Of a stretch of 64,000 bases of DNA, positions 6,510 through 52,496 are shown one piece after another. The notes beneath the pieces were generated by a model. The model had not been told where the DNA came from, ran no database searches, and saw only the letters and a program-made list of their open reading frames with translations. The position numbers and the translations under genes are program-made. The DNA is from Nemertoderma westbladi (lineage: Eukaryota > Animalia > Xenacoelomorpha). The stretch spans positions 1 through 64,000 of the forward strand of contig JAUCBJ010007860.1 of NCBI GenBank assembly GCA_032718475.1, read 5' to 3'. Position 1 is the first letter of the stretch. Each line of letters begins with the position of its first letter.

Positions 6510-6541
<32 letters not shown>

Positions 6542-16200: not shown

Positions 16201-16576
16201 GACTTGTAAATTTTTTGGTATAATTGTTACATAATTATTTAATAATATTTGATTATTTTATAATAATAATTTTAATTGCAACATTATATATACTTAGTGC
16301 CGTTTCTATGCGGCGAGTTGTTATATATCACAGTATATCTCTAGCAATATATCAAACATTACGGATGATGTAGTTAGCCAAGTACATAATTTAGACTTTA
16401 CAGCCCCAGACGAGTTACTTTGAAACATGACCTACTATAGTAGGTTATGACTAAAACATTAAATTATTTACAGTTGTCACAGCAACCTAATCAAACAAAT
16501 AAAATATTAGCCAACACCATCACTACTAATTTGAGAGATTCCACCAACATTTTACACATAATTTTTAATTACACAA

Positions 16577-18503
16577 TAATTGAAGAGATACGCCTATTCC
16601 TACTATTGGAAGAGACGGTAACAATACCTGCAATATCTTACTGTAAAGTTTGTAAATCAAATCATAAATCCGACCTTCTCACCAAAACAGTAAACTCTAA
16701 GTAAGCGAATATATTGCAGTATTGATCTCTTATAACCGGTGAGGCAGAAAACAGTCTACGAGCAGACAAACTTCGATGAAACAAAATCCCGCGCAGCGAA
16801 TCCTAAAATCAGGCTGACTCACTGACGGACTAAGGGGCTCGTATACTTTGCCGCGGTGTGATTTATATGGTTGGGCAAAGGGACGCTAGCTAGGTACAGG
16901 CAGAGATTTGGAGATGTCTAACTAGCGGGCAAAGCACAGTACGGACAAAGTTAATTTTATATATTTCGAGGTGTAAATAATTTCTAACGCGCGTGTGTTG
17001 ATTCTGAACGGTCAAAACAGTTTTGCTCCTTCACATATATAATTACTGGGTACGGTGTGCATTTTACGAATATTCTAATTTTATAACTTGTAGGTCCAAT
17101 ACTCACGAATGATAAGGTTCCTTCCCCTCTTGCGTATTTCCAGGACTCAAATTCAGGCATAAGGTTAATACTACGCCCAGAATTCGGCAATTTTAGGTAC
17201 CAGGTCCCTGATACTAAGAAGAGATGTGTTAGTTTACTACTGTAGGCGTACAGGTACTAATAGCTATCCTGGCTCCTATCTAGAATTTTAGTCACCCAGG
17301 TAGTCCGGGTAACTTCCTATTAGGGCGTTGGCGGGGACACGGTAGATGTTAGTATATCCCTGATAGCCTCAATTTATTTGCGCCTAGTGTAAACTGCCCT
17401 ACCGCCCGAACGGTACAATCCCAATTCAGGTGAAAACACAGCAACCCCCCTAGCCTACAAGTTCTAATGCAATGGACACTGTTGTACTGCAAATAGTCGC
17501 ACGCGCACCTGTACTTAGCAAGAGTTAAGCGTACAGTTTGCTGCACCCTAACCAATGTGTATGCCTTGTACCGGTGTGCCTACGTCCTATCTGCGTACTA
17601 GTATCTGCCTGCGCTCTCCCTCCCGTAGGAATGTGAAGGTCTACTGTGGGTTTTCCTGAATCAAGACAGTACAGTCCCTATGATGTAATTTTGGGCTTAC
17701 AGCGTGTCACTACGTCTACCTTTTGATCTTTTGGTCTTATACTTAGGTAGCAAGGATCGAACGCTGTCTAACCTTTCAGGCGATGGGCGAATAACTCTAA
17801 ATGGTATTGCGGGTTGTCTCTCGTCTACATTCCCGTGATGTTCCCGTTCATTGCTGCGGCCCGATCTCTAGCCGGCCATCCTGTCCCTGAGTTTGTTCAC
17901 CGTAGTGAATTCATAGTAAAACAGATAGAAAAGCTGAGAGAATATTCTGACTTTATTACAGAAGACACAATTATAATACAATGTAATCTGAGAATAAACT
18001 AAGCACGACAGAGAGATTGATTGAATGATAGATAGAATGTATAAGAAGTTTGTGTAAGTATAATAACTAATGAACGAAATCGCACCTTTATATACTAAAT
18101 TTGTGCCGCAATCAATCGAGAAAATTCTCGATTGTTCTATAGATTCTAACAAGGTTTTAAAGATAGCTATTGGTCCAGCTAATATATAACTTACACGACA
18201 TTGGTTACAATCAAATAACTACAGCCTTATTGGTACAGACAAATGCAATTAATTTGTAGCGGTTAATTTAAATGAGTTGAAATTCTGCACAAAAAATAAT
18301 TCGTACTTACTCGGATTCGAACTCGATACCTACTACACATATAATTTCCAACGCTCTACCAACTGAGCTACTGAACCACTTGACCGATAGATGTACAATA
18401 GATAGAACCAATACTAATGAGAACTCAAAGCAATCTTTACAAAGTTAATTCGAATAAAATAAAATTTTGAAAATCCACGGCATTTAAGGAATATAATTCT
18501 ATA
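16577..18503 (-). repeat. 3' LTR (1927 bp)
   Basis: Direct repeat of 34493-36421. By eye it differs by about 3 substitutions and one 2-bp indel. The preceding purine-rich GGAGCGG in element sense is a weak PPT candidate. Confidence 0.96.
18291..18377 (-). promoter_or_regulatory. tRNA-derived Pol III cassette inside the 3' LTR
   Basis: The minus strand reads GGTTCAG-TAGCTCAGTTGGTAGAGCG (A box/D-arm), then GAGTTCGAATCC (B box), then TTTTTT (terminator). There is no intact anticodon arm or acceptor stem. Confidence 0.65.
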
Positions 18504-20534
18504 CCGCTCCATGAAAACAGGATATTATCGTGCATAAAATATACGGTTTTCACCAATAATCAATCAAACTATAGAATACTTAGGGGCGTACTTACATATT
18601 TACAATTAAATTTCAAACAATACTTCCTTTCTACGTAATGATTCGATACAAAATAATTACAAATTCAAACCTTACGTATTTAAGGCTTTACTAAGTAAGT
18701 ACAATATAAATCTAAATTAAATTCACCAATATAAATCTATTGCATCTCAATATTGCATAAATTTAAACAATTACAAATACAAATAAATGAAAACAATAAG
18801 AAAGGCTCGCGAGTCTTCCATCTACTATTGCATCTCAAATATTGCATAAATTCAAGTAATTACAAATACTTGCGTACCTAAATGTAGATTGCATAAGTTT
18901 GGAATAATTACAAATGAGTCTTTCTGAGCACAAAATTTTCTAACTATAAAACTTTCTAAATACAAAATATAACACTTTACAAATGAAACTATAAGAAAGG
19001 CCCACGAGTCTTCCATCTACTCTTACTTTCTGTTTCACTGTAATACTGCTCATAAAATATAAATTGCATAATATTCGGAACAATATAAATTGCATAAGTT
19101 CGGAATAATATAAATTGCATAAGTTCGGAATAATCACAAATATAAAATATAAGTTTTACTAAATATAAGTTTTACAAAATATAAATTCTTATTTCTAAAT
19201 TTCATAAATTCGGAACAATACAAATTGCATAAGTTCGGAATAAGCACAAATATAAAATATACGCTTGTGTCCTTCTGGGCTCCTCCCCGAGGCGCACCCA
19301 CGAGGCGGACACCTTTCCACCACCCCTGGGGCCAGTCCGACTGCTTGTTATTATCAGACCGGGCCGGAGGGTGGCCTGATGCTTCCCGGGTTCAATTTTC
19401 AATTCCCCGATCACACCAGCACAGCTCGTCGAACATGTAGCCAGATGGGCGGCTACTGTCAACTTACTGTGGCCTGACTGTACATTGAGCCAACTCAAAG
19501 TATAACAAAGAGTCAACCGGCAGGTGGACCAGTCGATAGCGATCGAGCACCAAGGTCGCCCTTGGGCCTAACCGACGGTCTTGTCCCACGTGGGCTTGCG
19601 CTACCCAACATGGAATTTTGACTCGTTTTCACCTGCCTCGCCGGCAGTATTTAAAAAACAATACTGTCTGTAGCTCAAAAGCTACTGAACAAGTAACCAC
19701 TTACCAGTCACTGTACACGTGTACTCAACAGATGTTCACGAAATCAAGTACACAAACGGTAAGCACAAAATCGAACACATACCATGCACACACAGAGACA
19801 TAATCGGAAAGACAAAATCGGGTCAAAATCAGAAGGGACAAATTGTATCGACAAATAAAGAGTCGAGAGTACCTTATTTTACCGACAGGGTAAAATAACT
19901 TTGTGTGCACAAAGTATGCTGGGGCGCAGTAAAATATGGTCCTACTAATACCAGCGGCGTCTTGTCCAACTGGCAAGGGTTCCCATACTTACTCGCAGTG
20001 GCCACACATACAATCACGTGTACTCACGTACCTACAGCAACAGAAAGCTCAAAGACCCAAACAAATCCCAAAGACCAATCAGCTGAACATGGAGACAATA
20101 ACATATAGTATCAAAAAAACGGAACAGCTGATGGCCAAAGGAACCCATCCAAGCCCCAAGCAAACTGCCACTGGTTGCTCACATACAAAACATAGTTCAC
20201 ACCACATGAACCACAAATCACGCCATGCCACCACCCCTACTGTGTACAGGACTGGCAGTACGGCAACATGCCGACTAGACGGTACCACGGCACCATGGCA
20301 ATTCATGGTTCGTTAGACACGAGGGCCTTCAGTGACTCCCTAGCACTATATTAGTGATTTAACGTGCCCCCAGACCCTCACGAGTCCACCGCCGCCTGTT
20401 AAAACCACCCCTATAGAGACCTCACCTCTTTGGGTAGTTTTACTAAATTTTCTAAATATAAAACATATAATTCAAAATAAATCACAAATCATAAGAAAGG
20501 CCCACGAGTCTTCCGTCCACCCTTGCCCTCCCTT

Positions 20535-23500
20535 TTATCGCTTAGTAGATCGAGCCCTGCCGCGTCCTCGAAAACTGCGCACAGGTGACTTTGCTCGCGA
20601 TATGGGACTAATGGGGCGAGTCACTGGTTTACTTGGGACGTTGAGAGACGGTGCGACTATTTCCTCGCAAATTCGTCTATTTGGCATCCCAAAACCTCGA
20701 CCGATTCCTCGTGACCGATCAGTTGTCGCTACAGTTGGTAGAATGTCTGGGAACGCGCGAGAAGTGGACGACGCAGACCCAAGAGTAGCTTGCGCCCCCT
20801 GTTGATCAGCTGGTGTATGTCCCGATCCTCCTACCGGTTCTCTTGGAAGTGATACCGTATCCCGAGTAACTCGAATAGTCGGCTCAACTCCCTTGCGTTC
20901 TTCTACATTAATAATTTTCTTCAATTGTTGGCCCACCTTCTGGACCCGTATGATCCTACCCTGTCCGTCCTCCCGAGGGTGACGTGCAGACGGCGCAACC
21001 GGAGTGGCTGGTATATTTGTCGCCTCTAGGACCTCTTCTTCCTCGAATACGCTCGCTTGTATACGTTTGTGGTAAAACGCAGCTCGGTACGCCCATGCGA
21101 CGGTTAACCAAGCTCCCTTGTTCCGCTTTTCAGTTCGGAAACGATCGAATTCACCATACGTAATCCGATTAACGACTTTCTGAAAATTCCACGTGTTTTT
21201 GTTATCCGGGTGAATTTGTAACAGATACTCGCGCACCACTCGGAATCCGCTGTCGTGGGGCAAAATATCAACAACCTCGATAAGTTCGTCATATTGGGGC
21301 ATAGCGGAGATATATCCTTCCGACATCATCGTCTGGGGATTTACCGCCCAAAATCCGAGATGCGCTCTCATCGGAAACCGTCTTCTTTGTGCCGATACAT
21401 GTTCGTCGGCTAAATCTTCCCACTCATCAAATAACTTCCTCACGAGTTTTACAGATTCGTGTTCATAAGGTATGTCTCTCAGTTGGCATTCAGATGCTCG
21501 ATGTCCCTTTATATTGCAGTAAGTACATTGAGCCATAAATCTCCAGCAAGTATAAAAGGTATGAGACCCTTGATCCCCACACCATCCACAGATTAGCTGA
21601 GTCGTAGTAATGTGCTTTCCACTGCACTTTGCCATATGATGTCCAGCGACGCCACATTTACTACACATCGTATTGGCAGGGTACCACACTCGTTCGTATA
21701 TAAGATCTCCAATCGGTCGAGCGCTTCCTCCCATACTATAATCATAATCATCTGGGTCTATGGGTTGGTAGGTTTCTGAAGGTTGTATACAAACTATAGC
21801 ATCTGTTGCTTCAAGTTGTCGAATCTCCGTCTGAGATTTCTTCGGGAGGTTCCTTTCTATCTCAAGAAGTTCCTCTAAAGGATCGTCGGCGATCGTAGTA
21901 GTTACTTCGAATTCATCACCAAGGTGACCGATAGGCGCGCGCGTCTGCCGTGATTCATCCGTAATTTCCACGATACGTTCTCCTTCATAGGGTAACAATG
22001 TAAACATAGATGGTCTTTCGATAAGAGATCCCGCACAGCGAAGATACACGTCTCGAAATATGCTAAATCCTGCTCGAGTAAAGGCATTACACTGAGCGTC
22101 GGAGTTGTAGAAGGGTTCAAGGAATCGTCTAAACACGTCGGTACGAATTCTCCCTTCCATGTAGAACGTATGATCTTCTCCGAGACAAAGTGGATGTCTT
22201 TTGAGAGTCCGAGACACAATGTCGGCGATTAGGCAAACATTCACTGACGACTCTATCGCTAAATAATATTGTAAGACCGCTCTTGGAGGTGACGTAATAG
22301 CCCAATACACGCATCCTCTCCATTTAAGCTGTGATTCAAACTCACTCATATCTGGAGTATCACCTTCTCCATAAGTTTCAATATACTTGTTTCTTTTACC
22401 TTCCTTATAATCCCAATTGAATAACAGGTAGGAAATGTATCCAGTTCCAGTCTTCTGAGTATTATACTCACGAAAATATCCCTGTTCTATAGACCACAGA
22501 ATAAGAGGTCGAGTGTCGACGTATGGTGTCGGTAGTCGGTCATCGCTGTCCGTCATGCCGGCGAAGTCGCTAATTAAATCCTCCCTTACTCCTGATCCAA
22601 CCTTTACAACAGTTTTATCTAAAATCATGTTTCTTACCATCTTCGGTAACATTCTAGCGTCAATATTACAAGCTTGGTCCATCTTCTTTACTATATCGGT
22701 GATAAGATGGTGTCGCTTTGTATTCGCTGGAGGTATCGGCATTCGTTTGTCGCTCCTCTGTCTACTGAAAACGTGCAGGACTCCGTCCGCCGCTCTAATC
22801 TGTATAGTCTTAGAAGTCAAACTCTGCTGATGACTGCCGCCCTCGTTATCGTAAAACATATAACCGTTTTCCTGAAACGATCTAAACGTCCTAGTCCATT
22901 CATCCAACAATTCTTCCGAAGGTTGCCAAATCTTCTCTATATCCTTATCCTCATCGAAACGAATAACCTTACCTCGCCAATCTGCGGCAATATCTGTATC
23001 CGACTCGAAGGTTCCGGTTCCAATCCATAAACGAATCGTCTTGGTTAGATATCCTTTTAGATTACTCGGAGCTATGTCGGCACCAGCTCTATCCAGTTCC
23101 TTAAAATCTTGGATATGAGGTGGAACGTTGTTCACGACCTTTTGAGTAATATGTCTACGTAAATCATATATCTTACTCATATCGCTGAAAACAACTGCAG
23201 GAAGAAACTCCAAGTTTGAAATGATTTCTGGATGATCCACGATGGGTATTTCGTACGTCGTATCCTGTCGGACTGGTATACTAATAGGGAAATTGAGTGT
23301 CGTACTCAATGGTTTCGTAGCTGAAGTACTATACGGTTGCATTTCTCTTGGCCTCTCCGGGGATGCAATCTGTAGTCTCTGAATAACGTTTTGAGCAAAG
23401 TTTATGCTCTCGAAAACTTCCGGTGTCATCTCCTTAGCTGAAGTTTGATCGTGTGACGTCCAATGGCAAGGTAGGCTCGCGAGTCTTCCACCCCATTCTT

Positions 23501-24260
23501 CCATCTCACCTTTCTCGAAAGCCTTGTAGGCTCTGTATAGGCTAAGAGCTTCTTTCTTTTCGCGGGTTGACTGATTCGCCTCGTCCAGCGTAAGTTCAAA
23601 TACATCGGGTTCAACAACCTTAGGTGGGTAAATGACAGTTTCTCCCGCCTTTGGTCCGGTCATAGCAAATGAATGATATGGATTCGATAAAGGATACCCT
23701 CCTTCCTGGTAGCGTAGTTGTTGATGATTCGAACACCTCGCCAATATCGGTTCGGGATTTTCCTTATTCAAACGCATCGGAATCGCATTTCGTTGTTCGC
23801 GCATACAAGAACCGCATTGATAATAAAGTTTATAAACTGAAAATGCTTCCTTGGTTTCTCTATCGTCCCCTCGAGTTCGTCTGTAAAGATGCATTCCATC
23901 GAATTCATCGCGTACCGCGGGCATAGGTTCGTGCGCCTTTAGGTATTGCATGGTATGATACAAACGACTAATTTCAGTATCGGGGTCTTCGCTAATGTCT
24001 CCCGTATCACACAAAGCATCGTACGGGTAAAGTTCGTTGAAGGTTTGGCGCAAACTTTCGATTCTTTCGTTTAATGCGTTTTGCCTTCTCTTTAATACAT
24101 TCGAGTCATATTTAGTTCTCGCGAGTTTCGCTGTACTTTCCGATAATTCTTTTATACCGAATATAGTATAATCCTTGGCTCCAAATCTTTCGAATGGCGC
24201 TGCTGCCTCCTCTTGGATATCATATCCCCATCTCGGCTCTCCTTGTATCCCTTTCTCCAT
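20535..24260 (-). CDS. Retrotransposon accessory ORF2: DEDDy (WRN/EXD/RNase D-like) 3'-5' exonuclease-like domain plus three CCHC zinc knuckles
   Basis: Intact 1241-aa ORF. It has ExoI-like MFYDNEG, ExoII-like LPKMVRNMILDKTVVKVGSGVRED and ExoIII-like W..SPP..LQYYLAIE. The knuckles are CSKCGVAGHHMAKC, CGWCGDQGSHTFYTC and CTYCNIKGHRASEC, followed by an R/G-rich basic tail. Confidence 0.72.
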   Translation of the reverse strand: MEKGIQGEPRWGYDIQEEAAAPFERFGAKDYTIFGIKELSESTAKLARTKYDSNVLKRRQNALNERIESLRQTFNELYPYDALCDTGDISEDPDTEISRLYHTMQYLKAHEPMPAVRDEFDGMHLYRRTRGDDRETKEAFSVYKLYYQCGSCMREQRNAIPMRLNKENPEPILARCSNHQQLRYQEGGYPLSNPYHSFAMTGPKAGETVIYPPKVVEPDVFELTLDEANQSTREKKEALSLYRAYKAFEKGEMEEWGGRLASLPCHWTSHDQTSAKEMTPEVFESINFAQNVIQRLQIASPERPREMQPYSTSATKPLSTTLNFPISIPVRQDTTYEIPIVDHPEIISNLEFLPAVVFSDMSKIYDLRRHITQKVVNNVPPHIQDFKELDRAGADIAPSNLKGYLTKTIRLWIGTGTFESDTDIAADWRGKVIRFDEDKDIEKIWQPSEELLDEWTRTFRSFQENGYMFYDNEGGSHQQSLTSKTIQIRAADGVLHVFSRQRSDKRMPIPPANTKRHHLITDIVKKMDQACNIDARMLPKMVRNMILDKTVVKVGSGVREDLISDFAGMTDSDDRLPTPYVDTRPLILWSIEQGYFREYNTQKTGTGYISYLLFNWDYKEGKRNKYIETYGEGDTPDMSEFESQLKWRGCVYWAITSPPRAVLQYYLAIESSVNVCLIADIVSRTLKRHPLCLGEDHTFYMEGRIRTDVFRRFLEPFYNSDAQCNAFTRAGFSIFRDVYLRCAGSLIERPSMFTLLPYEGERIVEITDESRQTRAPIGHLGDEFEVTTTIADDPLEELLEIERNLPKKSQTEIRQLEATDAIVCIQPSETYQPIDPDDYDYSMGGSARPIGDLIYERVWYPANTMCSKCGVAGHHMAKCSGKHITTTQLICGWCGDQGSHTFYTCWRFMAQCTYCNIKGHRASECQLRDIPYEHESVKLVRKLFDEWEDLADEHVSAQRRRFPMRAHLGFWAVNPQTMMSEGYISAMPQYDELIEVVDILPHDSGFRVVREYLLQIHPDNKNTWNFQKVVNRITYGEFDRFRTEKRNKGAWLTVAWAYRAAFYHKRIQASVFEEEEVLEATNIPATPVAPSARHPREDGQGRIIRVQKVGQQLKKIINVEERKGVEPTIRVTRDTVSLPREPVGGSGHTPADQQGAQATLGSASSTSRAFPDILPTVATTDRSRGIGRGFGMPNRRICEEIVAPSLNVPSKPVTRPISPISRAKSPVRSFRGRGRARSTKR

Positions 24261-24928: not shown

Positions 24929-27900
24929 TTATTTACTAGTATTAGGTGGAGATTTGTAATCTCCAGACTCGTTACGAGTCTCTTCAAGAAGTACGAGACG
25001 TTGAGTCGGTCTGTCTACTGTACGACCGTCAATTGTCCGTACCATCACAGTTCTTGTCACTCCATCCATAGATGGATGTGTGGCTAAAATGACACCTGTT
25101 ATCCAGAAGCGTCTTTTTAGATTCACTTCTGCCAACAGCACGTGATCTCCCGGCTTTAATGCGCGGGTGTTATTATACCAAGTTGTTCTGGCAGAAATAG
25201 AGGGCAAATAATGGTTTTGCCATATTTCCCAGAATTTGTTAGCTAGTAGTTGCGTGATTTTCCACGCTTTTCTACCGTAACTGTCGCTTTCTATTGGAAT
25301 AGAAATAGGTGTCAAAGTTGTCGGTGCCTGCATAAGCAGGTGTGCCGGTGTCAAAGCAAACTGAGATTGTTTGTCATCGGGTACTAATACTATTGGTCTA
25401 GTATTTAGTATTGCCTCGATTTCAACAAACAATGTTGTCAGTTGGTCGTCTGTTAATATGTGGTTTACTGGAATGACCTTTGCCATTGCCGTCTTTATAG
25501 ATCTAATCAATCTCTCCCATACTCCGCCTCTCCAAGGACTATCTGGAGGATTGAACTTCCAAACAATCTTGTGAGGTTGTAGTTCGTTCGAGATTTGATC
25601 TTGATCTAATTTCTTAAAGGCTCTAGCAATTTCATTCCGAGCACCAACAAAGTTTGTCCCTTGGTCTGAGTACAAGCATTTTACTAGTCCGCGTCTAGCG
25701 ATAAATCGCCGCAGTGCTAGTATAAACGCGTTGGTGGAAAGATCCATCACACGTTCAATGTGAACTGCCCTACTGGACATACATGTGAAAATCAGTCCCC
25801 AGCGTTTTACTAGTATGCGTCCACGTTTCGTATGTATGGGACCAAAGCAATCAATTCCAGTCTCTGTAAAAGGTGGTCTGAATGCTTGAAGTCGTGCTTG
25901 TGGTAGTTCACTCATTTCTTGGGTACCTATTCTAGAATGTACCTTTTTACAAATAATACACGTACGTGTCACTGAACTTAATGCTTTACTGGGTCTAATT
26001 AATACAAATCTAGTACGTAAGTAGGAAAGACAGTGGTGTCTTCCAGCGTGTTTCAGATGTAGATGTGCGTCCAGTATCATTGCACGTTGTAGTTCGTGGT
26101 GTTGCGGTATTATTATTGGGTAACTAAAGTTTGTGTTAAAGTCAATGTTTTGAAGCCGAGATTTATGACAAATTAAGCCATTATAAATTATCGGACTCCA
26201 ACTCAGTATTGGTGACGACTTGATTGGTTGACCTTGACTTATAGATGTGAATTCGCGCGCGAAATATCGCAGTTGATAATGGCGAATTAATTTTATCTCA
26301 CACCTGTCAATCTCAGCCAATGTAAGTCGACGTGTAAAGTCGCGTTTGCCTTTAACGTATTGTACAAAACGTACAATCCACGCTAATTTTCGGCAAGCGC
26401 TTGTCCAAGAATCTGTTAAGTTTACAATACGGTCGACGTAAGTATTTGTGACGTCATCAGGTAAGTCAATTGAGAATTTGGAAGGTTTTGAATTACTAGA
26501 AGGGCCCACGGGTCCGCCGGTAAGTATTCCCTTGTTGACTGTTGATCCGTCCGGGTCTACAAGTAATTTGTCCTTCTTTGTCTTCTTACCTTGATTGTCA
26601 GTACTTTGTAAGTCGATCGTTAATGGTGGTTTGAACTCTATGGGATCAGTGGGTTTCGGTAAACTTATTTTTCTGCCGACATTAATCCCAGGTCTCACCA
26701 TAGGTTGCAAGTTCGGTATGTCTCTTGAGCGCAAAGTAACACCTGTATTTACATTAGCGTAGGTACTACCCACATCTGTAATACATGAGGTTTCACCGTG
26801 CTTATGGTTGCTCAAGTGTGTCAAAATTGGTAGTTTGTCAATACAAGGCCGCTCCAATAGGGAAACTGCGGCTTTATCGTTAGTCAATACATTACTAGTG
26901 TCTAGTCGACTGTCTAGTAATGTGTCTGGCGATACGTCTGGTAACGTATCTGGTTGTTTGTCAATAGAAGGCCGCTCCAATAGGGAAACTGCGGCTTTAC
27001 TGTTTGTCAGTGTGTTACTAGCGTCTGGTAGAATGTCTGGTTGACCGTCTAGTAACGTGTCTGGTTGACCGTCTGGTAACGTGTCTGGTTGACCGTCTGG
27101 TAACGTGTCTGGTTGACCGTCTGGCGATATGGCTGGTTGACCGTCTGGCGATATGTCTGGTTGACCGTCTGGCGATATGTCTGGTGTAGAAAGGCTCGCA
27201 AGTCTTCCTCTCTTGACCTTTGAAGTTATATCTTTCCATTTCGCCTTCGGTTTTTTCTTGAGTTTCGCCGCCGTCGTCTTTTTCTTTGTCTTCCCCTTTT
27301 TTGGTTTCTTGATTTCGGCGTCCTTGGGAATGGTGTTGGACTTGTTGTCGTATAACGGAGGCCAATCTTGTGTCGATTTCTGCAAGAATTGGGGTCCGTG
27401 TTGCCAAAATTCTTTGTTCTCCGGTTTACAGAATTCCTCAGGCATCATTCCTCGCGACGCAATATCAGCTGGGTTTTGTGGTCCGGGACAATGTCGCCAA
27501 TCCCCTTTTATTGAACGGTCTAGAATTTCCGCGCGACGGTTAGCAACGAATGTCTTGAATTCAAGTGTGTCGTTGTTTATGTAAAATAAAACCAACGTCG
27601 CGTCAGTCCAATAAAATATCTGTAAACTCGACTGTAGTTCTGTCTGTATGAGGTTCACGATGGTGGTTGACAGGGTTGCGGCTTGTAGCTCGGCTCGTGG
27701 TGTCGTCATATACTTAGTAGGCATGGTCTTAGCCTTAGAAGTAATGAGCGAAACATCGAACTCGTCTGATTCTACTTGTCTGCGTAAGTACGCTGCCACA
27801 CCAAAACCGTTGTCACTGGCGTCAGAAAAACAGTGTAGTTCCAAGTTGTCAGGAAATGTACTTTGCAATGGAAAGTAAACCCTGGGTATGAAATAATCCT

Positions 27901-30900
27901 CTAGCGAAGATAATTCCGCCTCCCAGGTCTTCCATAAGTCCACTTGGTCTGATGAGATCGGCTCGTCCCATGTTAGTCCATCTTTCCATATACTGCGCAT
28001 ATAAATGCGGGCTTGCAGTATCACTGGACTGATGAATCCTAACGGATCGAACAATCGGCTCAATTTTGACAAGCATGATCTCTTGGTCAGTGTGTTCCCT
28101 TGACTGTCCAGTCTCACCTTCACTCGAAAGTTGTCTGTGTTTGGGTCCCAAAAGAGCCCCAACACCTTAGTCGTCGGTAGTGGTTCGAACTCTAGGTCTA
28201 TGTCACCACCTCCACGCTCAGTAGTTCCGAATGAGTCTACTAATTCGGCACTGTTTGAGGCGAATTTGGTGAGGTTAAAACCTCCGCCCGCCAAGCAGTC
28301 CCGTAATTGATGTGCTACTGTTGTAGCACGTTCTACTGTGTCGCAACTCTGTAATCCGTCATCAACGTAAAAGTCACGCTCCACAATTCTAATTATCTCT
28401 GGGTCATATAGATGTTTCTGATCCCTAGCGGCCTGCTTTAGGGCGTACATCGTACAATTTGGGCTGTCTCTGGCACCGAAAACGCGAACTTGCATTTGGT
28501 AAGTCGCCGGTGGTAGACTTAAATCTCCTTCCGGGTACCAGAGGAACCGCAAACTGTCTCTGTCTCGCTCTAACGCTTTTACTTGGTGAAACATCGCTTC
28601 AACTTCGCAAGTAAAGGCTACTTGACGCTGACGGAAGCGCATAATCACCCCCATAAGATAATTATTCATGTTCGGTCCATCCATCAACTCACTATTGAGG
28701 GACATTCCCTCAAACAGAGCCGCACAGTCATTGACTACACGTACTTTGTCTGGTTTGTCGGGGTGTCTCACGTAGTGATGTGGCAAGTAATACGTTTGGT
28801 CGGTCACTCGCTCCGGGTTAGTCATTCGGATAGCGTATCCCTTTGTCAAATACGTCTCCATCTGAGTGTTATACTGCAGATGGGCTTTCTCGTCCTTTAA
28901 TAGACGTTGCCGTATTGAGTGTAGACGTCTTAAAGCCAGCGGATAGTTGTTTATAAGTTTAGGACTTTGGCTACGCCATAACATCCCTACCTCATAATGT
29001 CCGTCCTTCGTCTGGTGGATAGTATCTTCCATGATCTTCAGAGATTGTTTCTCCTGTTCCGACATGCAAGGTTCGTAGCTACCAGGTTCAGCTGTATCTT
29101 GTTCTAACCACCTGATAGTCTTCTCCGTTAATTCTTTGTCCAAGGCGGCTTGTTCCAACTGATGATTTCTCAACGCGTCATCATCGATATCGACTGGCAC
29201 TGTTGAGGTTATTGGGGTAGGTAGACTCGCAAGCCTATCATCTGTCGTCGATGGAATCTCTAGCTGACTCGTCTTCCCCCCAAGTTCTAAACTCACCTTG
29301 TGGGTTAGCTGCTCCTTGTGACTTATCATACTAGTTACACGTCTGTCGTGTTTGGTCGACTGTAGTGTAGTATGGTTCGCGTCGTGTGAGAAGGAATGAA
29401 TTGAATTTGTAGTTAATAAACTACATGTACTCTGTACATCGTCTTCCTCGTCACTTACGTCTAGTGTGCGCACAGGCGCTCGAGTATACCACCCTATCGG
29501 CGTTCTGCAGGCGTATGCGTTTCCCGCTACAACTGCCGATGGTCTGGTTTCCCACACCTGATGTAGGTTGAATTGGTCCGTCCCGATCAGCATGGCTACC
29601 GATCTATAATTGACAGGACATTCGGGTACACCAAGGTGTCTGAAATACTTACGGTCCTCTAGAGATTGTTCCGGCACTGGACCTAGTAGGTTACTAAAGT
29701 CCTTCGTGGCCGCAAAGGTTAGATCTCTAAAGGGTAACAAAGACCTCTCCCTCTCGCTGTGTTGCGATTTTGGAAGAAGAGAGTCTAAGTTTAACTTGAC
29801 TCGTGTCACTGGTATTGCACGCTGTCCGTGCATACTACTTACGGTATAACTGACACGCTTACCTTGTTTAAGATCCGTCACGACGTCAGCTATCTTTTCG
29901 TCCACGTAGCTATGAGATGAGGCTGAATCTAGAATCGCATAGATCCTCTTGCTCCCCTTTGTGCCAGTAACCTTAATCGGGATTACACTGAACCCCTTCA
30001 GTTGATCAGTAGTCAGGAGCGCGATCGACGGTTGTTCGTCTCCATTGGAATATTCATCGTCGTCTTCTGATTCTTCGTCCGACGATCCGGATTGTTCTGA
30101 GAAGCAATCCTCAATATGGGTCACGAAGGTTGGAGTCGTTTTCGATTCTCGTTTTCGGTAGGCCGCATCACATCTCGCTGCTGCTTCCGGGTGTTCCCTG
30201 GCGAAGCGTTTCGTCGGCGTGTGGCTGTCTGTGTGGAGCAGACCGTCATGGTTGCGTCCACAGGATGGACAAGTGTCGGTATTTGGGCAATCCTTACGCA
30301 CGTGTCCGTGTCGCGTACACCGCCAACAAGAGTCCAGTGGCCGTATCTGCAGCCGTCGTTCTTCCGAGTTCAACTCGCGAAATTGTCGACAACCTCGTAA
30401 CTTGTGACCAATATACCGCTTACCTAGATGCTCGCAGTATTGGCAGCCGTTGAAGTCGGTGCTGAGTTGCTGTCTCGTCTGTTTCGTCCCAATGGGCGCA
30501 GATACTCTATTACCGTCTGAGAATTGTCGTGATTCCGTCGGTGTGGCGTAAGTGGCCGTCTTAGTGGATGTTGTCTGGGGTTTTTGTCGGTTGGAGGATG
30601 GCAGCGTGATTCCTTCTGCCACGATGTGCTGGTCGGTGTAGTTAGATCGAGTTTCTACTACCGCCTCCCTGGATATTAAAAGGTACACATCTTCTAATTT
30701 TAAGAATCCTCCCCGCTCCTCTCGCTGGTATTCGACCTTCCTCCACTCCCGACGAAGTCGATGGTGGAGTCGTCCTATTATCTTTAATAGGACTGTAGGG
30801 GTATTCCCGTAATCAAGTTGTCCAATTGATCTTAAGGTAGTGATAGCGTTCTTGATCTCGTCAGCTAGTTTTAGTAAGTCGACGGGTTTAGTGATAGCCC

Positions 30901-33685
30901 CTCCCTTACAGAGTTCCTCTATTACTGACCTGGCCATGCTCACTGTACCTCCGTATATCGAAGTTAAACGATCGTACGCTAGTTCGAAAGCGTCCGGTAC
31001 ACCGACGAAAGTCTCCGCCAAACGTTTAGGTTCTCCTGACAACGTTTGGAGCAGGTAATTGAACTTCTCCCGTGATGTAAAGGCGCACACGGCGATCTGG
31101 GATTCGATATAGTCTACGAAGGTATGCCAGTGTTTTGAGCTACCGGAGAACTTCGGTGGTTGTTGTACCGGCAATCCCTGTCTGGCTGCGAATTTCGCTA
31201 TCTCCTCGGCAACGTTCAGAGTTTCGCGTCCTTGGTTGGTAACTTGGTTGATATCCCTTCTTGGCGCTTTTCCCTGATACGATGTGGGGTTTGAAGGTAC
31301 CGGTCTTTGTGGTTCCTTCGGGTGTCTATTGTGTTCGAATTCGGAATTTCTCGAACTGTCGGTGTAACCTTCCTCCAGACGTTCCTCGATCTGAGCCAAC
31401 TTATTGACAACTGGTCGCAGAATGTCGGCGAACTGTTGTGTACTAATTGCGTCCGTTGGTTGTAACGCCTTCGGTGTTGGTGTATTCTGTGGAGGATTGT
31501 CTGCAAAGGAGTTGTCTGAACGCTCGCGTTTATATTCATCGGCCCCCCCTGTTCTAAATACCTCGCGTTTCGGGTAATCCGATTCGCTCGAAGTACTACT
31601 ATCATCTGGATATGGTGGTCGACGTGCTCGCGTTCGTTGCGTCGTACGAATTCTCACGTTACGTTTCGGAACATCGTCCACTGATCTCCGTTGTTCGGTA
31701 GGCTCACAAGTCTTCCTCGAAGTCGTAGATTGCGATGTGAACTGGTTGAGCGGTCGCGTATCCACTGGTCTCCGTTGTTCGGTAGGCTCACAAGTCTTCC
31801 TCGAAGTCGTAGATTGCGATGCAAACTGAACCGGTGGACGAATGACAGCATTTGAATCAACTGGCCTTGTAGGTCGAAACGTCATTGGGTATTCGTAGTG
31901 CGTAACGGGTTTAGGTGTCAAAGGTGGACTCACCTGTTTTGTCGTCAGTAGTGCAGGTCCGGTCAATAAACTACTACGATCTGTAATCGGTGGGTTACTT
32001 ACCTTGACCCTCAAAATAGGCGACGACGTTGCTCTTGAAGGTATAAACTTGTCCGGAATAACAAACCTGTGTTCCGTCACACCATGGATAGGAGAGATAT
32101 CACTGCTACCAGCAATCGAAACAGGTTCCTTAGTCGTAACAGGTGCAAACATAGGAGTTACCTGAGGGAATCTTTGACATAAGTCCTTAACTAATTGTCT
32201 TTCTCGTCCAGGTGCCCCTACCGAACCTTCCTTCATTCGTTCCTGGATTTGGCGGTGCCTTACCTCTAACTGGTCTAGATCATGTCCATCACGAGATCTC
32301 ATCGATCGATCACGAGCTAGAAGATCCAGATTTTCCTTGGTTTCGGCTAATTCTCTCGCCCTTTTCTCAAGTTCGAAACGGAGTTTAACTTCCTTTTCTC
32401 GTTGTTCCGTTTGTTGTTGTTGCGCCTCCAACTCTGCTTGTCGTATCGCTTGTTGGGCTTTTATTTGCCGTGTCTTCATCTCGACTCTGGCTTCTGAAAC
32501 TAGTCGCTTTCTTTCTAACTCCGCCACTTCCGTTTGTCGCTCTAACTCGGCTGCCGCCGTTTGTCGCTCTAACTCGGCTGCCGCCGTTTGTCGCTCTAAC
32601 TCGGCTGCCGCCGTTTGTCGCTCTAACTCGGCCGTTGCCGTTCGTTGCGCTAACTCGGCCGCTGCCGCTTGTTGGTCCAACTGTCCAATGTCCAACTCTA
32701 ACCTTTCCATTTCGGCCGCTTCGAGTTCGGCTTGTTCCTGCAGATGAGAGATTCTCGCTACATTCGCGACACGTATTTTCTCTTCCTCTACCGCTGTTTG
32801 TATCATTAGAAGTTGAGCTTGTTCTTCCATATCGTGTTGCTGTCTGTAGAACTGTTGCTGTTGTCGAGCAACTTCTGACGTGACCATACTTCCCTCGCAG
32901 ATTTCGCTACGAATACTTACCAGCGATTGATTTAGTATTCCCGGTGCCGATTCGATTTGTGCAAATGAAGTTTCCCTCGTATATTCCGGCACGGTTTCCA
33001 AATCGCCGACGTCTTCGCCGCACATGCGTAAGTGGTCCGTCAGGTGTTTTAATTGTCCATCCAGTCGGTACAGTTCCTGTTCTTCCTCGGGTTGTAATAA
33101 TTCGTCCGAAACTGACTCACCTAACAACTGGTCCGCTTGTTCCTGTTGTATCTGTCTAATCGTCGACTTAAACTGAATCAGTTTCTCTCTAGTGGTCATT
33201 AGTTTCTCGAGGATTCTAAGTTGAGTATCCATGTCCTGTCTCTGTCTAGCTAGATCTTGTAGGCCAACTAGATTATCTACGGACTTATATACTTTACTCT
33301 GTACTCTAACCTGGAGGGTGTAGAACTCGAATCGAGACATCGGAGCGGTCAACCCGTCTAATATGCGTTGGCCTTCTCCAATACTCCTGGTTATATGCGC
33401 CATGTAGCCACCGACGCTTCTAACCACACTTTCTGTGCTTCCTGCTGAACTTACCATTTCCGTTTCCCTGTATCTAGGTTGCGGAACAGTTAGAAAGTCC
33501 TCGGTCCTGCCGTCACCTCGTACTACGGCATCCGGTACTCCCGTTGGATGTACTGGTGACGCACACGGTGTAGGTTCGGTAGGCTCGCGAGTCTTCCCCT
33601 GTTGTTCTTCCGCTGCTGACTTATCTCCGTCGCATGAGTCATAGTCGGTTTGTGTATTCTTCGTATAGTCTTGTTTGTCACTCAT
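24929..33685 (-). CDS. BEL/Pao gag-pol polyprotein (2918 aa)
   Basis: Motifs in order: coiled coil; PPKFSG (DUF1759-like); three Cys/His knuckles ending HDGLLH; protease ILDSAS; RT YYLPHH, KVRVV, FYVDD; RNase H LHCFSDAS, PRAELQAA, YWTD, NPADIASRG; integrase H..H..CIIC, GIDCFGP, YSDQGTNF, GVWERLI. Confidence 0.97.
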   Translation of the reverse strand: MSDKQDYTKNTQTDYDSCDGDKSAAEEQQGKTREPTEPTPCASPVHPTGVPDAVVRGDGRTEDFLTVPQPRYRETEMVSSAGSTESVVRSVGGYMAHITRSIGEGQRILDGLTAPMSRFEFYTLQVRVQSKVYKSVDNLVGLQDLARQRQDMDTQLRILEKLMTTREKLIQFKSTIRQIQQEQADQLLGESVSDELLQPEEEQELYRLDGQLKHLTDHLRMCGEDVGDLETVPEYTRETSFAQIESAPGILNQSLVSIRSEICEGSMVTSEVARQQQQFYRQQHDMEEQAQLLMIQTAVEEEKIRVANVARISHLQEQAELEAAEMERLELDIGQLDQQAAAAELAQRTATAELERQTAAAELERQTAAAELERQTAAAELERQTEVAELERKRLVSEARVEMKTRQIKAQQAIRQAELEAQQQQTEQREKEVKLRFELEKRARELAETKENLDLLARDRSMRSRDGHDLDQLEVRHRQIQERMKEGSVGAPGRERQLVKDLCQRFPQVTPMFAPVTTKEPVSIAGSSDISPIHGVTEHRFVIPDKFIPSRATSSPILRVKVSNPPITDRSSLLTGPALLTTKQVSPPLTPKPVTHYEYPMTFRPTRPVDSNAVIRPPVQFASQSTTSRKTCEPTEQRRPVDTRPLNQFTSQSTTSRKTCEPTEQRRSVDDVPKRNVRIRTTQRTRARRPPYPDDSSTSSESDYPKREVFRTGGADEYKRERSDNSFADNPPQNTPTPKALQPTDAISTQQFADILRPVVNKLAQIEERLEEGYTDSSRNSEFEHNRHPKEPQRPVPSNPTSYQGKAPRRDINQVTNQGRETLNVAEEIAKFAARQGLPVQQPPKFSGSSKHWHTFVDYIESQIAVCAFTSREKFNYLLQTLSGEPKRLAETFVGVPDAFELAYDRLTSIYGGTVSMARSVIEELCKGGAITKPVDLLKLADEIKNAITTLRSIGQLDYGNTPTVLLKIIGRLHHRLRREWRKVEYQREERGGFLKLEDVYLLISREAVVETRSNYTDQHIVAEGITLPSSNRQKPQTTSTKTATYATPTESRQFSDGNRVSAPIGTKQTRQQLSTDFNGCQYCEHLGKRYIGHKLRGCRQFRELNSEERRLQIRPLDSCWRCTRHGHVRKDCPNTDTCPSCGRNHDGLLHTDSHTPTKRFAREHPEAAARCDAAYRKRESKTTPTFVTHIEDCFSEQSGSSDEESEDDDEYSNGDEQPSIALLTTDQLKGFSVIPIKVTGTKGSKRIYAILDSASSHSYVDEKIADVVTDLKQGKRVSYTVSSMHGQRAIPVTRVKLNLDSLLPKSQHSERERSLLPFRDLTFAATKDFSNLLGPVPEQSLEDRKYFRHLGVPECPVNYRSVAMLIGTDQFNLHQVWETRPSAVVAGNAYACRTPIGWYTRAPVRTLDVSDEEDDVQSTCSLLTTNSIHSFSHDANHTTLQSTKHDRRVTSMISHKEQLTHKVSLELGGKTSQLEIPSTTDDRLASLPTPITSTVPVDIDDDALRNHQLEQAALDKELTEKTIRWLEQDTAEPGSYEPCMSEQEKQSLKIMEDTIHQTKDGHYEVGMLWRSQSPKLINNYPLALRRLHSIRQRLLKDEKAHLQYNTQMETYLTKGYAIRMTNPERVTDQTYYLPHHYVRHPDKPDKVRVVNDCAALFEGMSLNSELMDGPNMNNYLMGVIMRFRQRQVAFTCEVEAMFHQVKALERDRDSLRFLWYPEGDLSLPPATYQMQVRVFGARDSPNCTMYALKQAARDQKHLYDPEIIRIVERDFYVDDGLQSCDTVERATTVAHQLRDCLAGGGFNLTKFASNSAELVDSFGTTERGGGDIDLEFEPLPTTKVLGLFWDPNTDNFRVKVRLDSQGNTLTKRSCLSKLSRLFDPLGFISPVILQARIYMRSIWKDGLTWDEPISSDQVDLWKTWEAELSSLEDYFIPRVYFPLQSTFPDNLELHCFSDASDNGFGVAAYLRRQVESDEFDVSLITSKAKTMPTKYMTTPRAELQAATLSTTIVNLIQTELQSSLQIFYWTDATLVLFYINNDTLEFKTFVANRRAEILDRSIKGDWRHCPGPQNPADIASRGMMPEEFCKPENKEFWQHGPQFLQKSTQDWPPLYDNKSNTIPKDAEIKKPKKGKTKKKTTAAKLKKKPKAKWKDITSKVKRGRLASLSTPDISPDGQPDISPDGQPAISPDGQPDTLPDGQPDTLPDGQPDTLLDGQPDILPDASNTLTNSKAAVSLLERPSIDKQPDTLPDVSPDTLLDSRLDTSNVLTNDKAAVSLLERPCIDKLPILTHLSNHKHGETSCITDVGSTYANVNTGVTLRSRDIPNLQPMVRPGINVGRKISLPKPTDPIEFKPPLTIDLQSTDNQGKKTKKDKLLVDPDGSTVNKGILTGGPVGPSSNSKPSKFSIDLPDDVTNTYVDRIVNLTDSWTSACRKLAWIVRFVQYVKGKRDFTRRLTLAEIDRCEIKLIRHYQLRYFAREFTSISQGQPIKSSPILSWSPIIYNGLICHKSRLQNIDFNTNFSYPIIIPQHHELQRAMILDAHLHLKHAGRHHCLSYLRTRFVLIRPSKALSSVTRTCIICKKVHSRIGTQEMSELPQARLQAFRPPFTETGIDCFGPIHTKRGRILVKRWGLIFTCMSSRAVHIERVMDLSTNAFILALRRFIARRGLVKCLYSDQGTNFVGARNEIARAFKKLDQDQISNELQPHKIVWKFNPPDSPWRGGVWERLIRSIKTAMAKVIPVNHILTDDQLTTLFVEIEAILNTRPIVLVPDDKQSQFALTPAHLLMQAPTTLTPISIPIESDSYGRKAWKITQLLANKFWEIWQNHYLPSISARTTWYNNTRALKPGDHVLLAEVNLKRRFWITGVILATHPSMDGVTRTVMVRTIDGRTVDRPTQRLVLLEETRNESGDYKSPPNTSK

Positions 33686-34480
33686 TTCGGTAGTTGTAAG
33701 TCAAGTAAAGTGAGTGTCAAAGTATCGAGTTTACCGTATTTATATCTAAACGGTACTAATTACAGTCTTATAAAATTAGCCTACCGGCCGATTTTATAGC
33801 AGATGGATAAAATTAGCCTAAACGGCCAATTTTACAGCAAATAAATGTCACGGAATAAGTATATAATAAAATTAGCCTAGCGGCCAATTTTATAACAAAT
33901 AAATCAGATAACGATATGCGTTATCAAAAGGTAAATTAAATACAATAATACGGACTAATTCAGCAATGAACAAAGAAATCATACGGAATGCATAAATACT
34001 TGAGACAGTGGAACCCACAATAATTTTAACTAATACGGTAATGCCTAACTTATTTATGCAACTTTTCGAACTCACCCACTCCAATAATTCTCCAGAAAAC
34101 AGATTCCCAGATACAAACCGAACGTGAACCTTTCCGTTTTTAACGTTGCGGACGAAACGCGATTTTCCCAACCAAAGTTGTTGAGTTATCTATCTCCCAA
34201 ACTTGCTAAACACGGTCTTGCTCCCGTTACAGTCTAGAAATGAGTTCTGAATCCTGAAAAAACAAAAGAGTTAGGTTTTACTTTACGAAAAATTTTGTAC
34301 CGGTACAATATGGTATTTAAACCCTTTTAAACACCGGTATTCAATTCCAAAAATATTTTACACGCGGTTCAAATCAAATTTTATTTCAAAATTAGCACTT
34401 AGCTAATCAAATACAAATTTTTACCTCAAAATACAAAATTTTCAAATAACTTTAGTCCTACTGAACCGTAGTTCAGTAAA

Positions 34481-34492
34481 TCACATTCCTAC
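34481..34492 (-). promoter_or_regulatory. Primer-binding site, non-tRNA type (GTAGGAATGTGA), complementary to an LTR-internal 12-mer
   Basis: It is flush with the 5' LTR end and lacks the TGG start expected for tRNA-CCA pairing. The plus-strand sequence here is the exact reverse complement of 35543-35554. Confidence 0.7.
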
Positions 34493-36421
34493 TAATTGAA
34501 GAGATACGCCTATTCCTACTATTGGAAGAGACGGTAATAATACCTGCAATATCTTACTGTAAAGTTTGTAAATCAAATCATAAATCCGACCTTCTCACCA
34601 AAACAGTAAACTCTAAGTAAGCGAATATATTGCAGTATTGATCTCTTATAACCGGTGAGGCAGAAAACAGTCTACGAGCAGACAAACTTCGATGAAACAA
34701 AATCCCGCGCAGCGAATCCTAAAATCAGGCTGACTCACTGACGGACTAAGGGGCTCGTATACTTTGCCGCGGTGTGATTTATATGGTTGGGCAAAGGGAC
34801 GCTAGCTAGGTACAGGCAGAGATTTGGAGATGTCTAACTAGCGGGCAAAGCACAGTACGGACAAAGTTAATTTTATATATTTCGAGGTGTAAATAATTTC
34901 TAACGCGCGTGTGTTGATTCTGAACGGTCAAAACAGTTTTGCTCCTTCACATATATAATTACTGGGTACGGTGTGCATTTTACGAATATTCTAATTTTAT
35001 AACTTGTAGGTCCAATACTCACGAATGATAAGGTTCCTTCCCCTCTTGCGTATTTCCAGGACTCAAATTCAGGCATAAGGTTAATACTACGCCCAGAATT
35101 CGGCAATTTTAGGTACCAGGTCCCTGATACTAAGAAGAGATGTGTTAGTTTACTACTGTAGGCGTACAGGTACTAATAGCTATCCTGGCTCCTATCTAGA
35201 ATTTTAGTCACCCAGGTAGTCCGGGTAACTTCCTATTAGGGCGTTGGCGGGGACACGGTAGATGTTAGTATATCCCTGATAGCCTCAATTTATTTGCGCC
35301 TAGTGTAAACTGCCCTACCGCCCGAACGGTACAATCCCAATTCAGGTGAAAACACAGCAACCCCCCTAGCCTACAAGTTCTAATGCAATGGACACTGTTG
35401 TACTGCAAATAGTCGCACGCGCACCTGTACTTAGCAAGAGTTAAGCGTACAGTTTGCTGCACCCTAACCAATGTGTATGCCTTGTACCGGTGTGCCTACG
35501 TCCTATCTGCGTACTAGTATCTGCCTGCGCTCTCCCTCCCCCGTAGGAATGTGAAGGTCTACTGTGGGTTTTCCTGAATCAAGACAGTACAGTCCCTATG
35601 ATGTAATTTTGGGCTTACAGCGTGTCACTACGTCTACCTTTTGATCTTTTGGTCTTATACTTAGGTAGCAAGGATCGAACGCTGTCTAACCTTTCAGGCG
35701 ATGGGCGAATAACTCTAAATGGTATTGCGGGTTGTCTCTCGTCTACATTCCCGTGATGTTCCCGTTCATTGCTGCGGCCCGATCTCTAGCCGGCCATCCT
35801 GTCCCTGAGTTTGTTCACCGTAGTGAATTCATAGTAAAACAGATAGAAAAGCTGAGAGAATATTCTGACTTTATTACAGAAGACACAATTATAATACAAT
35901 GTAATCTGAGAATAAACTAAGCACGACAGAGAGATTGATTGAATGATAGATAGAATGTATAAGAAGTTTGTGTAAGTATAATAACTAATGAACGAAATCG
36001 CACCTTTATATACTAAATTTGTGCCGCAATCAATCGAGAAAATTCTCGATTGTTCTATAGATTCTAACAAGGTTTTAAAGATAGCTATTGGTCCAGCTAA
36101 TATATAACTTACACGACATTGGTTACAATCAAATAACTACAGCCTTATTGGTACAGACAAATGCAATTAATTTGTAGCGGTTAATTTAAATGAGTTGAAA
36201 TTCTGCACAAAAAATAATTCGTACTTACTAGGATTCGAACTCGATACCTACTACACATATAATTTCCAACGCTCTACCAACTGAGCTACTGAACCACTTG
36301 ACCGATAGATGTACAATAGATAGAACCAATACTAATGAGAACTCAAAGCAATCTTTACAAAGTTAATTCGAATAAAATAAAATTTTGAAAATCCACGGCA
36401 TTTAGGGAATATAATTCTATA
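34493..36421 (-). repeat. 5' LTR (1929 bp)
   Basis: Direct repeat of 16577-18503. It contains an element-sense AATAAA at 35289-35294 and the Pol III cassette at 36209-36295. Confidence 0.96.
36209..36295 (-). promoter_or_regulatory. tRNA-derived Pol III cassette inside the 5' LTR
   Basis: Same A box, B box and T6 layout as 18291-18377. Confidence 0.65.
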
Positions 36422-45843: not shown

Positions 45844-45997
45844 TAACCCGAAGATGTAGCCACGCGCTAGTGGATACATATAATATTTGAAATTAAAATT
45901 GCGTTGATTAGAGTTATATATGTAAATTTAGAAATATTCGGGTGGCAAGTTTATTTTGAATATTTTGTATTAGATTCAAAAAATTATTTGTGTCATC

Positions 45998-51297: not shown

Positions 51298-51329
<32 letters not shown>

Positions 51330-51796
51330 TGGACATGTCACTGAATTACGACATTATATTCCAGGACATGGTGTAATGCACAGAAAAGGAGGCACTACTA
51401 TAGCTTGTGTGACCGACCATAAGGGAAAATTGTTGAAGACAATTTTTAGAGGTTTTCGCATGACTTTTTTCAATTTTTTTATGGATGGTGGTTGGTCATC
51501 TGGTATTCGATTGAGTGATAGCTCGTAAATTTTCTTAGGTAGCCAGTGTTTTTATAAGGTATAGCCAGTGTTTTTAAAAATACATGAGGATTTAATAAAA
51601 ATTGCATTAGATTGCAATTACAATAGCTAAAATTTGAATATTTTTTTAGATATTTTAGGTATTTTAAAAACACTTGCTACCAAGCAAAATTTACAAGCTA
51701 TTACTAAATCGAATGTCAGCCAATTGTTAGAAAATTGAAATGAAATTAATTAAATTAATTGCAACTTTAAAATCTTCCCTTGAATGTTCGCGACCC

Positions 51797-52402
51797 GGCA
51801 CTTGTATAGTATCGATGCCGAAATTTTAGATGTTTTTTGATTTTTTTCTTTTTAGATTAAAATATTTTTGACATGTTGTTTGGCTTTGTATTATCAATTT
51901 CATTCTAGAATTACCGGTATATATTTTTGTTGCTATGGTTACATAAATAAAATAAATTTCAAATTACGTATTACGTAAAAATAATGTATTTCTTTTTGTA
52001 ATGCTTTTTTATTTCTTATTGTTATTGACAAATATATTTGAGGATTAAATGACACTTGTCATTTTTCACAATAAAAAGTACTAGCCAACACAAAATCAAA
52101 ATTACTAGCTACCATCTTTTTGCCAGATGTTCAAATATTTGTTCTAGAACAAAAAACGTCATAATAAAAGACATTTTCACAAGAAAAAATCGGTCAATTT
52201 TTTTTATTTTTTCAATTATGAGTTTTTCACTAGCTAATATAAAGTAATAGCTAACACAAAATAAAAATTACTGGCTACCATCTTCAAGATGGTAAATATT
52301 TGTTCTTGAACAAAAAACCTCATGATAAAACCGATAATCACTAATATAATTAATTAATAGATGTTTGTTTTTAAATTTGGGCATAGATACTATACTAGTG
52401 CC
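51797..52402. mobile_element. Mutator-like MITE, unit B
   Basis: GGCAC...GTGCC termini with TSD tcgcgaccc (51788-51796 and 52403-52411). Confidence 0.8.
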
Positions 52403-52496
52403 TCGCGACCCCACTAAAGATATCTAATTGCTTTATGTCTTCCAGTTCCTGCCCTCTGATGGTTTGCGTATGGTTCTCAGTTTGCACATAATAATT

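Follow-up and report, generated by a model that had tools for sequence, protein, structure and literature searches.

Self-priming of reverse transcription has been demonstrated in Tf1, and it is predicted in the Tf1/sushi, Tcn1 and copia TAR elements (PMC6317226, PMC3601003). In Tf1 and Tf2 of Schizosaccharomyces pombe, in Tj1 and in the Tf1/sushi chromoviruses of the Ty3/gypsy superfamily, the accessible parts of the literature describe a primer site that is complementary to a short segment of the long terminal repeat (LTR) (PMC4600332, PMC10085805, PMC5341516). The BEL/Pao elements, the Belpaoviridae of the International Committee on Taxonomy of Viruses (ICTV), are described as primed by host tRNA-Arg or tRNA-Gly at an 18-nt site, with LTRs of 0.2–1.2 kb and genomes of 4.2–10 kb, and their replication is called poorly understood (PMC8742986). 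Here we analyze a stretch of 64,000 nt from Nemertoderma westbladi (contig JAUCBJ010007860.1, positions 1 to 64,000; hereafter the window), whose minus strand carries a BEL/Pao retrotransposon of 19,845 nt (19.8 kb). Comparison of its sequence with that of its relatives indicates, with a probability that we put at about three in four, that this element uses 12 nt of its own RNA, and not a tRNA, to prime its minus-strand DNA. The features on which the comparison depends are as follows.

34481..34492, minus strand: primer-binding site position, 12 nt that immediately follow the 5′ LTR, with no TGG
35543..35554, minus strand: candidate self-primer at LTR positions 868–879, exactly complementary to the primer site
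17625..17636, minus strand: second copy of the candidate self-primer, within the 3′ LTR
34493..36421, minus strand: 5′ LTR, 1929 nt, with ends TA..TA (self-BLAST and LTR alignment)
16577..18503, minus strand: 3′ LTR, 1927 nt (self-BLAST and LTR alignment)
16572..16576, plus strand: 5-bp target-site duplication CACAA, with the second copy at 36422–36426
24929..33685, minus strand: gag-pol, a single open reading frame (ORF) of 2918 amino acids, BEL/Pao type (Pfam and translation)

A single direct repeat pair, 34493–36421 and 16577–18503, flanks the primer-site region (self-BLAST of the window and LTR alignment), and both ends of the element are fixed by the CACAA duplication together with an unoccupied target site that a duplicated segment retains near 57495. 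The LTR complement of the primer site is real and lies in exact register at the LTR boundary. With the LTR ends fixed by alignment, the pairing stops at that boundary and the 3′ end of the primer faces U5, as the preliminary description of this DNA had reported; it was also right that the 12 nt after the 5′ LTR (34492–34481) lack TGG, that their exact complement recurs in the 3′ LTR (17636–17625) and that an AATAAA lies 260 nt after the start of the 12-mer. As in elements of the Tf1 type, the primer site pairs with an LTR segment in the polarity needed for priming. The match ends at 12 nt (none of the 15,977 internal 13-mers has a complement in the LTR), and only four of 15,978 internal 12-mers, the primer site among them, have one. 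An order-1 Markov model of the LTR gives a chance expectation of 1.3e-4. The predicted primer/site duplex has an energy of -17.5 kcal/mol, and folding of an RNA that begins at 35554 predicts the helix with a pair probability near 1. The two LTRs are 99.7% alike, with five differing columns, so the element has replicated recently with its present primer site.

The relatives used for comparison are only 31–43% identical to the element in reverse transcriptase (RT)/RNase H. The best 80 of 550 metagenome contig matches were kept and represent 79 loci, 12 of them with both LTR 3′ ends inside the contig; a second set of 25 BEL/Pao loci in genome contigs (L080–L104), analyzed after the method was set, included nine with a resolved repeat pair. 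The offset allowed from the LTR end was widened after a first pass from 0–2 to 0–6 nt, and the controls were widened alike. In the metagenome set TGG follows the LTR in none of the 12 elements, and all 12 carry in their own LTR an exact complement, 10–15 nt long, of their own site. Five of these complements are contiguous (L001, L047, L060, L074 and L077) and seven form only across an intron junction (L015, L019, L031, L033, L041, L057 and L063); random internal positions attain equal length in 0–1 of 100 trials (0 of 50 for L001). Four of the five clean non-TGG elements in the genome contigs also pass, with 11, 11, 11 and 14 nt (controls 0–2 of 50), L081 contiguously and L084, L088 and L103 after splicing. 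The fifth, L085, is a strict miss at 8 nt, with a spliced 11-nt match bearing one mismatch seen by eye. Neither of the two relatives with a TGG site (L095 and L096) has a self-complement; that site is the 3′ end of tRNA-Tyr(GUA) in a published supplement table (PMC13524379).

Taken together, of 17 relatives that have clean LTR ends and no TGG, 16 carry in the LTR a 10–15 nt complement of their own, differing primer site, 10 only across a GT-AG intron junction and six contiguously like the window element. The duplex lies 0–4 nt from the LTR end in all 16 and in the window element, and the primer site begins with GT, or one base before GT, in 14 of the 16 and likewise in the window element. Across these 16 distant relatives the letters differ, yet primer site and LTR pair, a comparative result of the kind that the preliminary description had proposed as a check and one that supports self-priming. 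Nearest-neighbor RT identities among the metagenome positives are 50–81%, one duplicate family apart, and these positives are not fully independent since several may come from one host. When 39 further loci were scanned without fixed boundaries, 11 matches of at least 11 nt were found against 16 in 195 shuffles, a noisy result in which several matches are likely due to chance; it is left uncounted except for L001, which was retested, and 26 more loci had too little upstream DNA. The exact 25-nt junction pattern had no match in the genome contigs, and no relatives of the element were found in the viral contigs. In trees (a quick tree and FastTree), FastTree places the window element with the self-complementary relatives against the TGG set (SH-like support 100, midpoint root), a grouping that speaks for kinship with the positives and not for an order of events. 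Because 16 of 17 non-TGG relatives pair and neither tRNA-Tyr relative does, self-priming seems to characterize a wide BEL/Pao assemblage and not this element alone. Thus the earlier proposal that self-priming arose in a BEL/Pao lineage gains support, whereas its suggestion of a separate origin for this element does not. As to the loci themselves, L080–L104 sit in GTDB prokaryote genome bins, most likely as contamination from host animals. The LTR termini of the window element, TA..TA and not TG..CA, differ from the TG..CA of most relatives fetched; other non-canonical ends occur in L103 (6020–6724), which starts with TA, and in L001 and L033, which end in TATA.

The positives show further features for which the search did not select. 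Any GT..AG was allowed, and nonetheless the donor is GTAAG or GTACG and the acceptor a pyrimidine-rich YAG in all seven metagenome junctions. Between the sister families L084 and L088 three primer bases differ and the three matching site bases differ accordingly, a compensatory change (with the better splice donor of L084), and the L001 primer is unchanged in two LTRs that are only 74% alike. The 5′ LTR copy of L077 has an acceptor-like sequence at the junction and its 3′ copy a contiguous primer, which suggests intron loss, although the contig could be a mixture of copies. In the trees, the contiguous forms are dispersed among the spliced ones. From these patterns it is likely that the lineage commonly builds its primer by splicing an LTR intron, and that the window element is a form without such an intron, whose primer is already contiguous. 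An extension of this primer by splicing was considered and rejected, as the best spliced match is 8 nt and was equalled in 48 of 150 controls.

The element is a BEL/Pao member by virtue of its Pol type, not its primer site. The Pfam domains of Pol stand in the order protease, RT, RNase H, integrase, with a Pao-type RT/RNase H, and gag-pol matches Peptidase_A17 (9.7e-42; Pao peptidase/RNase H), DUF1759, DUF5641 and an integrase zinc finger; the ORF contains low-complexity insertions, and YVDD and the acidic motifs of RNase H and integrase were seen by eye in the translation. A search with Pol found 761 proteins at E ≤ 1e-30. PF05380 is present in all 120 matches listed, and the best among these are BEL/Pao proteins of marine invertebrates and fish (38–44% identity). 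The Sailor lineage, dominant among mollusc BEL/Pao elements in the accessible part of one survey (PMC6238403), is a lead only for naming the clade. The LTRs with their 5-bp target duplication, the single gag-pol ORF and the Pao peptidase/RNase H, DUF1759 and DUF5641 domains are all shared with the Belpaoviridae as the ICTV describes them, and the element differs in its 1.9-kb LTRs, its length of 19.8 kb, a second ORF without homologue and the absence of a tRNA site: instead of an 18-nt match to a tRNA 3′ end there is no TGG after the LTR, and the site is absent from the tRNA 12-mer table that was searched. With Tf1/Tf2, Tj1 and Tf1/sushi it shares a primer site directly after the 5′ LTR and an LTR complement in place of a tRNA. 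Those elements belong to another superfamily, while the primer spans a splice junction in 10 of the 16 positive BEL/Pao relatives; since the Pol is of BEL/Pao type and no chromodomain was detected, the window element is not a Tf1/sushi member, but it may work like Tf1. The TAR lineage of Ty1/copia (Houba, Osr-1) and the Tcn1 plant chromoviruses are alike in that self-priming is predicted from complementarity, and differ in being plant elements of other superfamilies, with no splice-built primer mentioned in the available text (PMC6317226).

The preliminary description attributed known self-priming to Ty3/gypsy Tf1; this is correct for Tf1, but such priming had already been predicted outside Ty3/gypsy, for copia TAR, in the accessible text of PMC6317226. 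It knew of no BEL/Pao case, and neither self-priming nor a splice-built primer in BEL/Pao was reported in the full-text literature searched (most subscription journals and Repbase Reports lay outside the search). A search for primer-site and tRNA terms had no hit in the main text of De la Chaux and Wagner (2011), of the Sinbad paper or of the mollusc survey. Self-priming is a known mechanism that appears to be undescribed in BEL/Pao, and a splice-built form of it is added by the relatives.

By analogy with Tf1, the transcript would fold back so that 35554–35543 pairs with 34492–34481, and the element's RNase H would cut after the twelfth base. The predicted cut lies between 35543 and 35542 and leaves 1050 nt to the LTR end, so that the RT would extend the freed 3′ end by about 1050 nt up to the cut. 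The product would then transfer to the RNA 3′ end, a step for which the transcript must be polyadenylated beyond the primer (AATAAA at 35294). The 3′ LTR would serve as template for whatever lies upstream of the cut, which would allow an LTR intron to persist, or to be lost if that copy were also spliced. The signals in the 5′ LTR that bear on this model are the following.

36003..36012, minus strand: best TATA box of the LTR, candidate promoter A, 458 nt upstream of the primer
35870..35875, minus strand: AATAAA upstream of the primer, incompatible with self-priming if used for polyadenylation
35653..35659, minus strand: TATA-like motif, candidate promoter B, 105 nt upstream of the primer
35562..35618, minus strand: possible short intron (from motifs), with a GTAAGC donor at 35618 and CAG acceptors at 35574 or 35562
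35289..35294, minus strand: AATAAA downstream of the primer, the signal needed by the self-priming model

Observations on the RNA itself point both ways. The best TATA box and one AATAAA are both upstream of the primer, the latter 321 nt before the 12-mer and followed by U-rich sequence; the downstream AATAAA is 248 nt after the primer end. The LTR has no TATA-like motif about 30 nt upstream of the 12-mer (nearest -105, best -458), and the suggestion of the preliminary description that the 12-mer could be the first bases of R, with a start at 35554, finds sequence support in its TCA motif alone. In the relatives, TATA motifs lie at -31 in L019 and at -124 and -133 in two others and are missing in eight, and, in favor of the model, an AATAAA or ATTAAA is found downstream of the primer in 10 of 11 examined. 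Predicted primer pairing tolerates a 5′ extension of up to 30 nt; for an unspliced start 50 or 75 nt upstream it drops to 0.29 or 0.01, respectively, and from the upstream TATA box it is 0. The possible intron (45–57 nt, ending 19 or 7 nt before the primer) contains sequence that competes with the primer pairing, and holding it unpaired lifts the predicted pairing from 0.01 to 0.98; we treat it as hypothetical because it was picked post hoc and because folds of more than 1 kb are unreliable. A start near 35630 with removal of the short intron is a serious possibility, although short of an even chance, a start within about 30 nt of the primer is only slightly less probable, and a start at the upstream TATA box seems doubtful. 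The side duplexes of the Tf1 pretzel structure do not exceed shuffled controls in the window element (42 of 60 and 16 of 60) or in 11 relatives, with two marginal exceptions (3 of 60 and 5 of 60); a weak U5-end duplex adjoining the primer is present in the predicted fold.

Further points against self-priming come from the comparison and from the primer site. The widened offset raised the positives from 4 to 11 of the 13 loci then tested, and counting the doubtful L030, L058, L097 and L098 as misses lowers the total to 16 of 21 (L030 and L058 are negative for a complement, but in both the 3′ LTR copy extends as far as the contig does; L097 is unlike an LTR pair and the end of L098 is decayed). 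The relatives are distant (31–43%) and the window element sits on a long branch. When the permissive search used for the relatives is applied to random internal positions of the element, 2 of 40 reach 12 nt. In three DNA runs of the host, the primer site carries C>T at 34484 (site position 9), and this variant makes up the majority of contig depth (27,958/43,988, 33,960/45,592 and 43.6/63.2). It would introduce a C-A mismatch and reduce the duplex from -17.5 to -11.3 kcal/mol unless the LTR co-varies at 35551; no change at 35551 is among the variant rows listed, and in run X4 the single contig over 35551 is unchanged. The missing 35551 row in a second listing (16 rows) is uninformative, since the known variants at 35323, 35419 and 34484 are left out there as well; those at 35323 and 35419 reach 99% in the DNA-run contigs. 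Run X4 also has a diverged contig of depth 45.7 (the 34484 variant has 43.6) that does not align across 35525–35662, and speculatively a matched primer could hide there. As about half of Tf1 cDNA keeps the primer-site copy, according to the accessible part of PMC11042837, a lasting mismatch at 34484 would need explaining. The element family is abundant and variable in the contigs of the host DNA runs. One of these, X4 contig 18, is a 701-nt copy over 34663–35363 with 94 differences, of which those listed are mostly A>G in the sense of the element (T>C on the plus strand), which suggests ADAR-type hyper-editing or a diverged subfamily.

Among the alternatives, the one that survives best, itself improbable, is that the pairing is real and selected but serves as a long-range RNA duplex (for packaging, dimerization, translation control or a check of splice state), with priming by another route. 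Pairing alone does not show cleavage, the Tf1-type side duplexes are unsupported, and the strong-stop DNA of 1050 nt would be far longer than the 62–203 nt of 11 relatives. On the other hand, the duplex stands at the primer-site position and in the right polarity in every positive relative and in the window element, it occurs only where a tRNA site is missing, and no other primer candidate was found. A host RNA (a half-tRNA, tRNA fragment or other small RNA) priming at the site, with the LTR match incidental, is quite improbable. The variant at 34484 would suit it, being common in all three DNA runs and a G/A polymorphism at position 9 that a primer with U opposite could tolerate, and half-tRNA priming is known in copia lineages, as stated in the available text of PMC6317226. 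The lack of TGG, however, means that no mature tRNA 3′ end is involved, neither 11-mer form of the site occurs in seven supplementary files, including a table of tRNA 3′ 12-mers (3′ ends only), and a host primer leaves unexplained why 16 relatives with mostly differing sites match their own LTRs, 10 of them only after splicing. That the match in the window element is chance or a disused relic is very improbable, for although the position-9 variant lacks demonstrated co-variation, the U5 junction duplicate (below) enriches related words locally and 2 of 40 permissive controls attain 12 nt, the strict chance is about 2e-4, LTRs 99.7% alike imply recent replication with the present site, and the feature fits the pattern of the relatives, GT start included.

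The preferred reading thus remains priming by the element's own 12-nt RNA. A more far-reaching version, which we regard as rather doubtful, is that a widespread BEL/Pao branch swapped tRNA priming for a self-primer assembled by the spliceosome, so that only spliced RNA would be reverse transcribed, and that the giant TA..TA element is a descendant without the primer-building intron, in which a short upstream intron would mask the ready-made primer until removed and strong-stop DNA would be about 1 kb long.

Other features of the element are these.

34457..34480, minus strand: predicted hairpin of 10 bp, loop C(UACG)G, immediately following the primer site (-10.0 kcal/mol)
34508..34531, minus strand: imperfect duplicate, in U5, of the junction of LTR end and primer site (from sequence)
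20535..24260, minus strand: second ORF, 1241 amino acids, with three CCHC-like knuckles seen by eye
18504..18512, minus strand: candidate polypurine tract, a short purine-rich tract before the 3′ LTR
36210..36295, minus strand: tRNA-like stretch in U3 with A-box-like and B-box-like motifs and a T run (motif reading)

The hairpin loop is one that we take to resemble UNCG tetraloops. The second ORF has no homologue among proteins of 682–2172 amino acids, no Pfam family above threshold and no envelope match. Neither ARAGORN nor Rfam called a tRNA in the LTR region, the U3 stretch (36295–36210) included. Its first bases reappear in the hairpin after the primer site, and the U3 region 36004–36358 has about 30 times the mid-LTR depth in DNA run X4, so the tRNA-like stretch may be a separate high-copy repeat.

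Elsewhere in the window, intronless ORFs for SAMHD1-like HD-domain proteins (14755–16200 and 55706–57139, plus strand; about 40% to animal SAMHD1) lie within a segmental duplication with a 31-bp satellite, and the insertion point of the retrotransposon is about 380 nt downstream of one of the two. SAMHD1 itself is an anti-retroviral deoxynucleoside triphosphate hydrolase. A duplicated segment of 6.5 kb (1220–7715 and 45997–52496) contains an RT ORF on the minus strand (2456–3769) and overlapping plus-strand ORFs, and there are three copies (8037–8468, 53933–54373 and 60840–61271) of a unit of about 430 nt that is like a miniature inverted-repeat transposable element, with inverted arms of 100 nt.

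The prediction for the window element is precise, with the cut placed at 35543/35542. If self-priming is true, it would explain the missing tRNA site in these elements and may free them from control by tRNA fragments, and the splice-built primer of the relatives, if true, would tie reverse transcription to splicing. If the broad branch self-primes, priming without tRNA would have arisen independently once more, in a superfamily confined to animals.
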